NCBI GenBank assembly: GCA_029561555.1
Contig: JAKQXH010000080.1
Coordinates: 1-57,118, forward strand
Reading direction: 5' to 3'
Source: Candidatus Omnitrophota bacterium
GTDB lineage: Bacteria; Omnitrophota; Omnitrophia; Omnitrophales; Omnitrophaceae
DNA: 57,118 nt
Positions 18,679 to 22,735 of the stretch are shown piece by piece. The number at the start of each line of letters is the position of its first letter. Position 1 is the first letter of the stretch. The notes under the pieces were generated by a model that was not told the origin of the DNA, made no database searches, and worked only from the letters and a program-made list of their open reading frames with translations. The position numbers were made by a program, and so were the translations under genes.

Positions 18679-21126
18679 ATGCGTCTTTTGATCGTAGGCG
18701 GAGTGGCGGGCGGAGCGTCCGCGGCGGCCCGTGCCCGGAGATTATCGGAAAGCGCGGAAATCGTTTTGCTGGAGCGGGGCGAGCATATCTCGTTTGCCAA
18801 TTGCGGGCTTCCTTACCATATCGGCGGCGCCATCCCGGACCGGACGCGCTTGCTGGTTCAAACCCCCGAATCCATGAAAAAACGTTTCCGGATCGATGTG
18901 CGGACCCAAAGCGAGGCCGTTAAAATCAACCGGGAAAAACGGCGGCTGACCGTCCGAAATCTTGTGACCGGAAAGGAAACGGAAGAGCCCTACGACGCCT
19001 TGATTCTCAGCCCCGGGGCGGAACCGATTAAACCTCCCGTTCCCGGCATCGATTCCGCAAAAATCTTCACGCTTCGCAACCTGGCCGATATGGATGCCAT
19101 TCAAAAAGCGCTTGCCTCGGCCGGCCCTCAAAAAGCGGTCGTCGTGGGAGGCGGCTATATCGGCCTGGAAGTGGCCGAGGCCCTGCGCGAACGGAACATC
19201 CCGGCAACGCTGGTTGAATTGACCGGGCAAGTCATGGGACCCATCGATCCCGAAATGGCGACTCCGCTTCACCAGGAACTGGTCTCGCGGGGAGTCGACC
19301 TCAGGCTCGGCGTTTCGGTCAAATCCTTCCGGGAGGAAAAAACTCATCTTGCCGTTGAATTGAGTTCGGGGGAAATTATTCCGTGCGGGTTTGCCGTTCT
19401 CGCCGTCGGGGTTAAACCGGAAATCAAGCTCGCAAAAGAATCCGGTCTTGAAATCGGCGAGCGGGGAGGAATCACGGTTGATGCTTCCCTGCGCACGAGT
19501 GATCCGTATATTTTCGCGGTGGGAGACGCCGTGGAAGTGACCGATTTCGTGGGGGACGTCAAAACCACGATTCCTCTCGCGGGCCCCGCCAACCGTCAGG
19601 GACGGATTGCGGCGGACAATATTTTCGGGCGGAAATCCGTCTACAAAAAAACGCAGGGAACGGCTATTTGCAAAGTATTCGGCCTTGCCGCCGGAATGAC
19701 GGGATTGAACGAAAAAATTTTGAAGCGTCTCGGGACTCCGTACGAGAAAATTTACATTCACGCGGCTTCTCACGCAAGTTACTATCCGGGCGCCTTTCCC
19801 ATCAGCCTGAAACTTATTTTCAGTCCCGAAAACGGGAAAATACTGGGGGCGCAGGCTGTCGGCCGGGACGGAATCGACAAACGCATCGATGTGCTGGCGG
19901 TCGCCCTGAGAGCGGGGCTTACCGTCTACGATCTGGAAGACCTGGAACTTTCCTACGCCCCGCCTTACGGCTCGGCCAAAGATCCGATCAATTACGCGGG
20001 GTTTGTCGCTTCAAACCTTCTGCGGGGGGACGTTTCCGTCTGTCATGCGGAAACGGTAAAAACCCCGGAGGCCCATCAGCTGATTCTGGACGTCCGGACG
20101 GTTGAAGAAACCAAAAGCGGCATGATCCCCGGCGCGGTCAATATCCCCGTCGACACGCTTCGGGATCGCATGAAAGAACTCCCCCGGGACAAGGAAATCC
20201 TCGCGTATTGCAAAGTCGGCCTGCGGGGATATCTCGCCTGCCGCATCCTCGCGCAAAACGGTTTTCGGTGTCGGAATCTTTCCGGAGGCTACACGACCTA
20301 TCAGGCGGCCCTCGGGATTATAAACAGGCCCAAGGAGGCGGAAAAAGAAATGAAAGACGATACGGGTGCTCAGGACATTCGGGAATCCTCGAATCTAAAA
20401 ATCGCCTTGCGAATCGATGCCTGCGGACTTCAATGCCCCGGCCCGATCCTGAGGCTTAAAACCGAGCTCGACAAAATCCGTCCCGGAGAGGCGCTTGAAA
20501 TCTCCTCGACGGACCCCGCCTTCGCAAAAGACGTCGAGGGATGGGTAAAAAGCACGGGAAACCGGCTCGTAAACTTTAAAGCGGAAAACGGGATCTTGAC
20601 CGCCACGGTAGCGAAACAGATAAATGCTCCCGGGCAAAATACCTCTTTCGATTACTCCAAAAAGAAAACGATTATCGTATTCAGTAACGACTTCGACAAA
20701 GCCATCGCCGCGTTTATCATCGCAAACGGCGCTCTTGCGATGGGAAGCGAAGTCACGATGTTTTTCACGTTTTGGGGGCTCAATGTCCTCCGCAGACCCA
20801 ATCCGGTCCTCGTCAAAAAAAACCTGATCGAAAAAATGTTCGGCCGGATGATGCCCCGGGGCGCGGAAAAACTTTCCCTTTCGAAAATGAACATGGGCGG
20901 CATGGGGACCTGGATGATCAAGGGCATTATGAAAAAGAAAAACGTGGCTTCCCTGCCCGAACTCATCGAAACGGCAAAAAAGGCGGGCGTGCGCCTCGTC
21001 GCCTGTACCATGTCCATGGATTTAATGGGCATCAAAAAGGAAGAGCTGGTTGACGGAATCGAAGAGGGCGGAGTCGCGATGTATCTTTCCCACGCCGAGG
21101 GCGGAAACGTCAACTTGTTTATCTAA
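18679..21126 (+). CDS. CoA-disulfide/persulfide reductase fused to rhodanese, TusA/SirA and DsrE2 domains
   Basis: GGVAGG FAD motif, SFANCGLPY redox Cys, GGGYIG NAD motif, SYAPPY; rhodanese YCKVGLRG; TusA DACGLQCPGP; DsrE2 FFTFWG...VACTMSMDLMG. Confidence 0.92.
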   Translation: MRLLIVGGVAGGASAAARARRLSESAEIVLLERGEHISFANCGLPYHIGGAIPDRTRLLVQTPESMKKRFRIDVRTQSEAVKINREKRRLTVRNLVTGKETEEPYDALILSPGAEPIKPPVPGIDSAKIFTLRNLADMDAIQKALASAGPQKAVVVGGGYIGLEVAEALRERNIPATLVELTGQVMGPIDPEMATPLHQELVSRGVDLRLGVSVKSFREEKTHLAVELSSGEIIPCGFAVLAVGVKPEIKLAKESGLEIGERGGITVDASLRTSDPYIFAVGDAVEVTDFVGDVKTTIPLAGPANRQGRIAADNIFGRKSVYKKTQGTAICKVFGLAAGMTGLNEKILKRLGTPYEKIYIHAASHASYYPGAFPISLKLIFSPENGKILGAQAVGRDGIDKRIDVLAVALRAGLTVYDLEDLELSYAPPYGSAKDPINYAGFVASNLLRGDVSVCHAETVKTPEAHQLILDVRTVEETKSGMIPGAVNIPVDTLRDRMKELPRDKEILAYCKVGLRGYLACRILAQNGFRCRNLSGGYTTYQAALGIINRPKEAEKEMKDDTGAQDIRESSNLKIALRIDACGLQCPGPILRLKTELDKIRPGEALEISSTDPAFAKDVEGWVKSTGNRLVNFKAENGILTATVAKQINAPGQNTSFDYSKKKTIIVFSNDFDKAIAAFIIANGALAMGSEVTMFFTFWGLNVLRRPNPVLVKKNLIEKMFGRMMPRGAEKLSLSKMNMGGMGTWMIKGIMKKKNVASLPELIETAKKAGVRLVACTMSMDLMGIKKEELVDGIEEGGVAMYLSHAEGGNVNLFI

Positions 21127-21481
21127 ATGAGACCGGAACTTACGGAGTCCCGCAGGGACGACGTCAAGTTCCCCGGTCGAATTTACTCCAGGAGCCTCCG
21201 GCCCAGGAGGCGACGTGGAGTTACCTAAATGAGCACAGAACTTACGCGACTCAAGGGAGCGTCAAGTTCTCCGTGCGAATTTATCCCGGGAGGCCCCGGC
21301 CCAGGGGCCGACGTGGGATTCTTCCAATGAGACCGGAGTGCCGGAGTTATGAAACTCCGGCCGGGGGCCCATCCAGTTTTGACTCGCCGTCCGTTACCAA
21401 TGAATCGCCGATTCGTTTTAGCTCCGGAGGCGAATTAATCCCCCGCTTTTTTGCGGATTCTGAGGCGAAGGAGCTAAAGCG
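21124..21481 (+). repeat. Tandem degenerate ~100-bp structured repeats plus further hairpins
   Basis: Units 21124-21225 and 21226-21324 share TAAATGAG...GAACTTACG...CGTCAAGTTC...CGAATTTA...GGCCCAGG...GACGTGG with compensatory stem changes. A third partial unit starts near 21325, and an additional hairpin spans 21414-21481. Confidence 0.85.
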
Positions 21482-21532
21482 AATTTTCAGTAAAGCGGTC
21501 TCCGGAAGATTTTTTCATTACAAGCTGAGAGC

Positions 21533-22735
21533 TCACCCGGCCGCGGCAGCCCCCGCCGTCCAACCCGATGCCCAGGCCCAAGCCAGATTGTAGCCGCCTC
21601 GACGCCCCTGGACGTTCAGGATTTCTCCCGCGAGGTAAAGCCCTTTCCGCCGTTTTGATTCAAGCGTCTCCGCTACGACTTCATCCGTATCGATTCCTCC
21701 GGCGGTAAATTCGGCCTCATTCCATCCCCTTGTCCCGACAATTTTAAATCGCCGGTTCTTGAGAAAATTCGCGAGCCCCGGTACGTCAAGCTCCCGAAGC
21801 TCCCGCTCCAGGGCCGCGGAAAATTTCCCCGGCAAAATCCCCGTCACCAAATCCTTTTTCTCGAATCCCCGGCGCAGTCTTCCGGATAATTCATCCCGCA
21901 ATTCGTTTTCTTCCATAAAAGGGATTAAATCAACGGAAACGAAAATGTCCTTCTCCCCGTTCCGGTGTATGGCGATCGAAAGCTCTTCACTTACGTCAAG
22001 GATGGCGGTCCCGGAAAGCCCGTACTTTGTGAACAAAACCTCCCCCGAGGCCTTCCCGGTCTCCCGTCCCCCGGCAAATCCGTAAACCGCCGCCCGGATC
22101 TTCTGTCCCTGAAGGGTGTGGCACCAAGAATCCTTTGCCAACAACGGAACCGTGCTCGGAACGGGTTCAATGATCCGATGGCCGAAATGCCGGGCCAATA
22201 AATAACCGCTCCCGTCGGCGCCCAGGGCCGGATAGGATTTTCCCCCGCCGCAAAGGACTGCTTTCCGGCACGGAAAAACCTCCCGGAGCTTTGTCCTCAA
22301 AACAAACCCGTCGCCCGAAGCCGATAAGCCGCCGATATCACAGTGAAATTTGCAAGAAATCCGAAGGCGCTTAATTTCCATCTCGAGCACGCTTACGACG
22401 GATGAGGCCTGATTGCTCGCGGGAAAAATGCGGCCGTTATCCGAATGCCCGACAAGCCCGAGTTCCCTGAAAAACCGTTCGATTGAGCTTTGGCCGAACC
22501 GTTCAAAAACCGATTTCACCAGCGCACGGCTTTCCGGGTTGTAAAATGCGGGATCCAGTCTCTCGTTCGATAAATTGCAGCGCCCGGCGCCGGAAGCCAG
22601 AATTTTCTTTCCCAAACGGGGCATTTTCTCGCAAAGAACCACCCTTGCGCCTTTTCGCGCGGAACAGATAGCCGCAACGATTCCCGCCGCACCTCCCCCG
22701 ATTACCGCAATATCATACTGTTCCATAGGTTGCAT
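21533..22735 (-). CDS. HI0933/YhiN/BaiN family flavoprotein
   Basis: GGGAAG, GKKILASGAGRCNLSN, GEVLFTKYGLSG, AEFTAGG, GEILNVQGRRGGYNLAWAWASG. Confidence 0.93.
   Translation of the reverse strand: MQPMEQYDIAVIGGGAAGIVAAICSARKGARVVLCEKMPRLGKKILASGAGRCNLSNERLDPAFYNPESRALVKSVFERFGQSSIERFFRELGLVGHSDNGRIFPASNQASSVVSVLEMEIKRLRISCKFHCDIGGLSASGDGFVLRTKLREVFPCRKAVLCGGGKSYPALGADGSGYLLARHFGHRIIEPVPSTVPLLAKDSWCHTLQGQKIRAAVYGFAGGRETGKASGEVLFTKYGLSGTAILDVSEELSIAIHRNGEKDIFVSVDLIPFMEENELRDELSGRLRRGFEKKDLVTGILPGKFSAALERELRELDVPGLANFLKNRRFKIVGTRGWNEAEFTAGGIDTDEVVAETLESKRRKGLYLAGEILNVQGRRGGYNLAWAWASGWTAGAAAAG

Follow-up and report, generated by a model that had tools for sequence, protein, structure and literature searches.

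The spacer behind a gene for a CoA-disulfide reductase-type enzyme (cdr) in a Candidatus Omnitrophota genome contains hairpin-forming units of about 100 nt. These lie on a contig of 57,118 nt (GenBank assembly GCA_029561555.1, contig JAKQXH010000080.1), which was analysed over its full length and is referred to as the window; it is contig C73 of the genome studied here (G000), an assembly of 2.2 Mb that is 83% complete. The units are probably non-autonomous hairpin DNA repeats akin to MITEs (miniature inverted-repeat transposable elements) and to REPINs, the hairpin-forming doublets of repetitive extragenic palindromic (REP) sequences, partnered with a nuclease of the GIY-YIG family instead of a tyrosine transposase. 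The family to which they belong has a conserved fold, is dispersed between unrelated genes, varies between strains, adjoins the motif GGAG and carries an embedded nuclease gene in some of its members. Among the candidates put forward in a first-pass annotation of the window, a REP/MITE-like mobile element of single-stranded DNA fits best with the dispersal, the cdr orthologues without a copy, the strain variation, the nested modules and the gene-carrying relatives. The literature searched contained no paper joining GIY-YIG proteins with REP, REPIN or REP-associated tyrosine transposases (RAYTs), and none on hairpin repeats of Omnitrophota.

Fold of the repeat and its conservation

Each unit is composed of a long hairpin A and a hairpin B, and two such units stand in tandem in the window (21124-21225 and 21226-21323). 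The general plan of hairpin A is TAAAT, GA, a stem of 4-6 bp, AACTT, ACG and a variable apical hairpin, followed by the return side, with feet that read TAAATGAG and CGAATTTA. In unit 1, the 5' half consists of TAAAT, GA, GACCGG, AACTT and ACG, leading into an apical hairpin with another G.A tandem, and the 3' half of CGT, a bulged C, AAGTT, a bulged CC, CCGGTC, GA and ATTTA. The compensating changes in hairpin A of unit 2 are GCAC/GTGC and AG/CT. Hairpin B follows the plan YCCCR, G, GA, stem, GGCCCA loop, return stem, GA, C, a bulged G and a closing stem. The strand bearing the tandem G.A mismatches, which is the plus strand in the window, is called the G.A strand. The core patterns of hairpins A and B have two matches each in the window, where at most 0.01 are expected, and two matches were reached in none of 100 shuffles of the window. 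The folding z-score of the window units is -5.5 on the plus strand and -4.2 on the minus strand. Tandem Repeats Finder reported nothing on the window because the units are too diverged from one another.

A search of the genome by BLAST and with a covariance model (R1), derived from 16 full copies in the same genome, yielded 27 R1 matches at 17 intergenic loci. Standard pairing is found in 87% of cells across the 16 full copies, compared to 29-35% when the partners are slid by 1-3 columns. Both sides change between copies in 20 of the 35 base pairs, and the observed covariation score was reached by none of 500 shuffles. The earlier description of two units of about 100 nt that keep their structure while changing sequence is confirmed. 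All 16 copies keep the G.A tandem at the base of hairpin A. In hairpin B, Watson-Crick pairs take the place of the tandem in six of the 16 (five C-G and one U-A at one position, A-U at the other), and the loop of hairpin B reads GRCCYA in most family copies. Of the features ascribed to hairpin B by the first-pass annotation, the compensatory stems hold, whereas the invariant GGCCCA loop and the invariant GGA/GACG internal loop are properties of the two window copies and not of the family.

A protein-binding RNA array of the kink-turn (K-turn) type, the motif bound by L7Ae and YbxF, is not supported, as the tandems lack the 3-nt bulge: the tandem of hairpin A lies between two regular helices with no bulge, and hairpin B has a single bulged G on the opposite strand, in addition to the Watson-Crick replacements in six copies. 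An Rfam scan of the window at E values up to 10 returned only noise (best mir-1990, 18 bits against a cut-off of 63, E = 0.66), so the units match no Rfam family.

Identity between the loci of the genome reaches 89% at best, with a median of 62%; the copies are old or of varied origin. The genes next to the 17 loci are unrelated (ilvN, katG, nuoM, thrS, hcp, pyrR, cdr, those for ribosomal proteins L25 and L31, and others), and copies are also found within operons, namely nuoL-nuoM, ilvB-ilvN and rho-rpmE. Integron attC sites were rejected as an explanation, since the copies adjoin housekeeping genes on many contigs and not cassette arrays; no search for the integrase IntI was made. The apical loops of both hairpins A and B are sites at which additional DNA is present.

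A second dispersed two-hairpin family (S) was noted in the same genome, with the layout GCCG-stem-loop-stem-CGGCAC, TYCGC and then a second covarying hairpin. Counted by pattern and stem check, it has at least 19 strict copies, compared to one in a control made of the reversed genome sequence. S copies occur in the window, on contigs C16, C95, C103, C93 and C45 and elsewhere, often nested in A and B loops. On contig C52, a GTCATCCTGAGCG...CGAAGGATC hairpin, related to the repeat that flanks the small GIY-YIG gene on contig C76, replaces hairpin A ahead of a hairpin B, and this hybrid arrangement implies that modules of different repeat families are mixed.

Spread across Omnitrophota and variation between strains

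The covariance-model search for further copies, which the first-pass annotation had proposed, was extended to genomes sampled from the order (41) and from the phylum (301). The family is present in 21 of the 41 genomes, with 1 to 38 copies each, and in 147 of the 301 (E <= 1e-6). Two other genomes of the same taxonomic family were sampled and hold 0 and 1 copies (G001 and G002, respectively). The orthologous cdr loci of five other Omnitrophota-labelled metagenome-assembled genomes (MAGs) and of one Elulimicrobium MAG contain no copy.

Exact-protein look-ups gave identical cdr, ilvN, L25 and pyrR loci across samples, and the rho-rpmE locus alone differs. The rho-rpmE spacer measures 334 nt in the genome studied here and 690 nt in a contig encoding an identical L31 protein, the extra 356 nt comprising a duplicated composite and a unit that belongs to another subfamily. 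No empty insertion site was recovered.

An array of three units and the pyrR leader are immediately preceded by an RNase P RNA gene (locus L074, about 290-640; same strain as contig C25). Contig C25 itself ends inside this RNase P RNA/pyrR repeat region. The ends of several more contigs likewise fall in or next to repeat arrays, so the repeats probably break assemblies.

A GIY-YIG nuclease gene inside members of the family

Small open reading frames (ORFs) for GIY-YIG proteins are multi-copy throughout the order, and some of them are part of the repeat. On contig C9 of genome G016 the order is hairpin A, CCCCGCACCCAGAAA, a GIY-YIG ORF of 76 aa, TTTCTGGGTGCGGG and an inverted hairpin A, and this layout is repeated around a 78-aa homologue on contig C138 of genome G035. 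Both ORFs coincide with inverted pairs of R1 matches. As CCCCGCACCCAGAAA and TTTCTGGGTGCGGG are the B arms on either side of the ORF, the nuclease gene sits in the loop of hairpin B. A search with this protein found homologues in 53 of the 301 genomes of the phylum. Among the 30 closest homologue loci, inverted A matches stand on both sides of the ORF in at least 10, and about five more have a one-sided or weak A match.

Other genomes contain a gene-less form, consisting of A, B and inverted A, with ends in common with the gene-carrying form. The gene-less copies of G035 share the hairpin A and B arms of its gene-carrying copy, and hairpin A can be aligned across the two forms. Furthermore, the repeat is more frequent in genomes that encode this nuclease subfamily (odds ratio 3.2, p = 2.6e-4).

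The only ORF inside family members encodes a GIY-YIG domain of 76-80 aa (PF01541, 46 bits). Compared with the PDB, the nuclease profile matches the UPF0213 proteins BH0048 (E = 1e-10) and EF2693 (E = 9e-9), followed by the SLX1 endonucleases (E about 1.5e-3). Residues Y5, Y16, G18, R26 and E42 are invariant and H30 is nearly so; we take these six to be the core residues of the GIY-YIG fold. NCBIfam holds no name for the nuclease.

In an alternative explanation, the units are REP/REPIN-type repeats moved in trans by a Y1 transposase (RAYT or IS200-like) that reads a one-strand hairpin and the tetranucleotide CTCC next to it. Y1_Tnp genes are present in 30 of the 41 genomes of the order and one intact gene in the genome studied here, the inverted A pairs of other genomes look REPIN-like, and a strand-specific hairpin directly 3' of CTCC resembles the logic of IS200/IS605 and REP elements. 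However, the flanks of the Y1 gene in the genome studied here contain neither this nor any other repeated sequence, and among the Y1 genes and R1 matches listed for the 41 genomes, no pair is separated by 14 kb or less. The presence of the two is not correlated either (both in 17 genomes, the repeat only in 4, Y1 only in 13 and neither in 7). In addition, the hairpin foot has no GTAG or CGTC tag, CGTC being confined to the interior of hairpin A, and TnpB is absent from all 41 genomes. The first-pass annotation had pointed to Y1/RAYT transposases as possible companions of the element; no link to them emerged, the partner found being the GIY-YIG nuclease, and we give movement by a Y1 enzyme only a slim chance. 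The intact Y1 gene, IS200-like or RAYT-like and 158 aa long, is located at C65:59955-60430, with a second, truncated copy at the end of contig C13. An origin from TnpB/omega-RNA systems was likewise rejected, as PF07282 has no match in any of the 41 genomes.

Strand asymmetry and placement beside GGAG

According to folding predictions, the G.A strand exceeds its complement in stability in 35 of 40 copies under RNA parameters and in 32 of 40 under DNA parameters. By our own crude gene calls, on which all strand counts relative to neighbouring genes rest, it is antisense to the adjoining gene at 12 of the 17 loci in the genome studied here and at 8 of 11 in relatives. The mRNA at most loci would bear its complement. 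Of the earlier claim that the structure is strand-specific and belongs to the 3' end of the cdr transcript, the asymmetry is retained, and the assignment to a transcript end does not hold for the family in general.

The hairpin A foot (...CTCATTnA) is followed outward by GGAG within 5 nt at 20 of 43 distinct ends, compared to 2.7% of intergenic positions (p = 2e-20). This GGAG, which is read as CTCC on the G.A strand, is usually the Shine-Dalgarno sequence for a gene that points away from the element, and placement beside it appears to explain the mostly antisense orientation. In four genomes the GGAG is instead the 5' end of a tRNA starting GGAGAGG, which by its sequence is probably tRNA-Ser. 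The location of GGAG at tRNA 5' ends favours a sequence preference in insertion over a role in translation. The units abutting these tRNAs (C20:2979-3160 in the genome studied here, and loci L022, L025 and L028) come from four genomes in three families of the order, and reflect either one old insertion or repeated targeting of one site. Where genes read into the element, the TAA of TAAATGAG serves as their stop codon at four loci, cdr included.

These positions relative to genes invite an explanation by a cis-acting RNA, either an mRNA 3' stabiliser or terminator, or an intercistronic hairpin that lies flush with stop codons and ribosome-binding sites and controls decay or translation starts. 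The overlap of the hairpin A foot with the stop codon of a same-strand gene at the four loci agrees with such a role, as do a foot within a few nt of a Shine-Dalgarno sequence and start codon in many copies across genomes, the copies inside operons and the pairing kept at a median identity of 62%. However, the mRNA at most loci would be the complement, in which the G.A tandems become pyrimidine mismatches, and the GGAG adjacency extends to tRNA 5' ends, which are untranslated. No T-run terminator was found after the window hairpins, the orthologous cdr loci do without the element, its copy number varies between near-identical strains, and some copies carry a nuclease gene. The wobble pairs in the stems (38 G.U versus 25 A.C) differ without significance and favour no transcribed strand. 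A cis-acting RNA is accordingly unlikely to be what the family is.

An independent small RNA gene or array, transcribed from the G.A strand and representing an undescribed structured non-coding RNA family, would account for the strong covariation with conserved non-canonical motifs on one strand, for a G.A strand that is often opposite to the neighbouring genes, as expected of an independent gene, and for the blank Rfam scan. Other findings speak against it. The search of the window region revealed no promoter-like site, related genomes differ widely in copy number (0 to 38), and units are truncated, nested and chimeric. A single transcript cannot hold both A hairpins of a full element in the G.A form, since they are inverted, and the B loop of some copies contains a protein gene. 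Such an RNA gene is therefore regarded as very improbable.

Target duplications at the insertion sites are irregular. Three units are flanked by duplications, of 15, 20 and 56 nt, those of 15 and 20 nt being on contigs C103 and C18. The 56-nt direct duplication, with 2 mismatches, flanks a single unit at C98:52354-52576 (L009, about 1445-1667). What is duplicated are the 17 codons that end a glycosyltransferase gene on the opposite strand, so that the 3' end of this gene is restored and the gene stays intact.

Organization of the cdr spacer

The features of the cdr region are collected in Table 1. The domains of the cdr-like protein were read from Pfam families on an identical protein in another sample, and the nearest relatives of the gene are records labelled Candidatus Omnitrophota. 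As had been noted before, its stop codon TAA (21124-21126) doubles as the first three bases of hairpin A in unit 1. The cdr-like gene and the HI0933-like gene downstream are convergent, so that the repeats fill the spacer between two gene ends. The partial third unit of the first-pass annotation is confirmed as a truncated foot of hairpin A, and is interrupted by an S-family hairpin.

Table 1. Features of the cdr spacer and its two flanking genes (positions in the window)
Feature	Position	Strand	Description and basis
cdr-like gene, 815 aa	18679..21126	+	CoA-disulfide reductase-type enzyme with rhodanese, TusA and DsrE domains; ORF list
Unit 1 hairpin A	21124..21185	+	Sequence and pair counts; R1 match 21122-21225, 98 bits
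Unit 1 hairpin B	21186..21221	+	CTCCA-G-GA-GCCTCC, loop GGCCCA, GGAGGC-GA-C-(G bulge)-TGGAG
Unit 2 hairpin A	21226..21283	+	Architecture of unit 1 with compensating stem changes; R1 match 21224-21323, 107 bits
Unit 2 hairpin B	21284..21319	+	TCCCG-G-GA-GGCCCC, loop GGCCCA, GGGGCC-GA-C-(G)-TGGGA
Third unit, truncated	21326..21336	+	5' foot of hairpin A alone (AATGAGACCGG), identical to unit 1
S-family hairpin (GCCG-stem-loop-stem-CGGCAC)	21338..21361	-	Interrupts the third unit; stem-checked pattern
Outer hairpin, 15-nt arms	21411..21484	.	Arms 21411-21425 and 21470-21484, 93% complementary
Downstream convergent gene, FAD-binding, HI0933-like	21533..22735	-	ORF list, Pfam

Within the outer hairpin are two copies of GAGGCGAA in direct orientation and one small hairpin, CCGC-T6-GCGG; self-pairing of GAGGCGA in the outer hairpin is only a possibility. 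The genome has one other copy of the outer hairpin, which adjoins a unit on contig C57 (C57:13865-13915). The two copies have the outer stem in common, and the inner segment (TGAGGCGAA...) is inverted on C57, as would result from a flip between the inverted arms.

Proposed mechanism and significance

As non-autonomous repeats partnered with a GIY-YIG nuclease, the units would be recognised as DNA. The folded hairpins, in the form of an extruded cruciform or a single strand, would be bound by a structure-specific nuclease, with the G.A tandems being kept as part of the recognised shape. Nicking or cutting would drive the copying of the repeat into new sites beside GGAG, and would also carry the nuclease gene into the B loops of copies that lack it. 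At cdr, the copies would merely occupy the spacer between convergent genes, and any effect on the end of the cdr mRNA would be a by-product.

Several observations weigh against this explanation. The copies in the genome studied here are at most 89% identical and show no sign of a very recent burst, and their intact pairing despite divergence suggests a continuing constraint, possibly a role at the level of the host or of RNA. The units of this genome are A-B in direct tandem, without the inverted partner A, and the nuclease subfamily was not found in its assembly, which is 83% complete. The sole small GIY-YIG gene of the genome (C76:32880-33560; L061, 380-1060) is flanked by a different repeat, made up of CAGGATGACA-type units and GTCATTCTGAGCGAAGCGAAGGATC; it was considered as the local partner and rejected, since these flanks are not of the hairpin A/B family. 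Furthermore, no regular or fixed-length target-site duplication was found, 27 of 30 units having no flanking repeat of 8 nt or more. To our knowledge, a GIY-YIG nuclease alone is no known transposase, and both the mobility of the repeats and their cleavage by this nuclease are inferred from sequence.

The arrangement of A, B and inverted A with the GIY-YIG gene might be taken further, as a new class of autonomous element. Its sole protein, the SLX1/UPF0213-type nuclease, would recognise extruded G.A hairpins, place copies beside GGAG at ribosome-binding sites and at the 5' ends of tRNAs, and enter the B loops of gene-less copies by homing, with the cdr-side units as its non-autonomous derivatives. 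This extended proposal is possible but rather doubtful, and is put forward tentatively.

Bacteria commonly have small hairpin repeats of the REP kind, which have so far been explained mainly by tyrosine transposases in Proteobacteria. The family described here is widespread in an uncultured phylum, and combines an elaborate fold and placement beside GGAG with a tiny relative of branched-DNA nucleases as its only associated gene. If this nuclease does move the repeats, they would constitute a new and very small kind of mobile element, and the protein and its DNA hairpin would form a defined pair that is open to bench work. For annotation, the units should be masked as repeats in Omnitrophota genomes instead of being described as gene-specific regulatory RNAs.

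Comparison with known systems

The REP/BIME (bacterial interspersed mosaic element) and REPIN-RAYT systems of Proteobacteria resemble the Omnitrophota repeat in being short, imperfect, hairpin-forming and dispersed between genes, and in forming mosaic clusters of variable content that persist across a lineage (PMC3116915, PMC3337134, PMC3733652). REPINs are inverted doublets around a spacer, and the Omnitrophota repeat is likewise arranged in some genomes (A, B and inverted A), whereas the genome studied here has direct tandems. Compared to REPs, the Omnitrophota unit is larger (about 100 nt, with two hairpins), lacks a GTAG/CGTC tag, keeps tandem G.A mismatches and fixed bulges, and adjoins GGAG. 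In contrast to REPIN-RAYT systems, no repeat-flanked RAYT gene was found, the GIY-YIG nuclease being the only gene inside members.

MITEs, such as Correia/NEMIS of Neisseria and the enterobacterial ERIC and RU elements, are also gene-less copies with ends common to a gene-carrying form. As here, they are located in intergenic spacers and inside operons, and they can affect the transcripts of neighbours, as may also apply here. Unlike MITEs, the repeat comes with no transposase and no fixed-length target duplication, each of its ends is a long hairpin, and the units in the genome studied here are single-ended and in direct tandem.

With the IS200/IS605 family, the repeat may have in common a hairpin that matters on one strand and a location directly 3' of a tetranucleotide, here CTCC (at 20 of 43 ends); IS608, for instance, inserts 3' of TTAC. 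However, there is no adjacent tnpA, none of the sampled genomes of the order has tnpB, and the Omnitrophota ends are inverted repeats instead of two hairpins on the same strand.

On the protein side, the UPF0213 (YhbQ-type) proteins and SLX1 share the GIY-YIG catalytic core and are the nearest solved relatives of the Omnitrophota nuclease. SLX1 is a structure-specific endonuclease that cuts branched DNA. Homing endonuclease genes, for their part, spread by cutting sites that lack them. Compared to GIY-YIG homing endonucleases such as I-TevI, which are free-standing or intron-encoded and have a DNA-binding domain of their own and a long asymmetric target site, the Omnitrophota protein is only 76-80 residues long and consists of the catalytic domain alone, and its gene is found not in an intron or intein context but in a hairpin loop between two inverted G.A hairpins.

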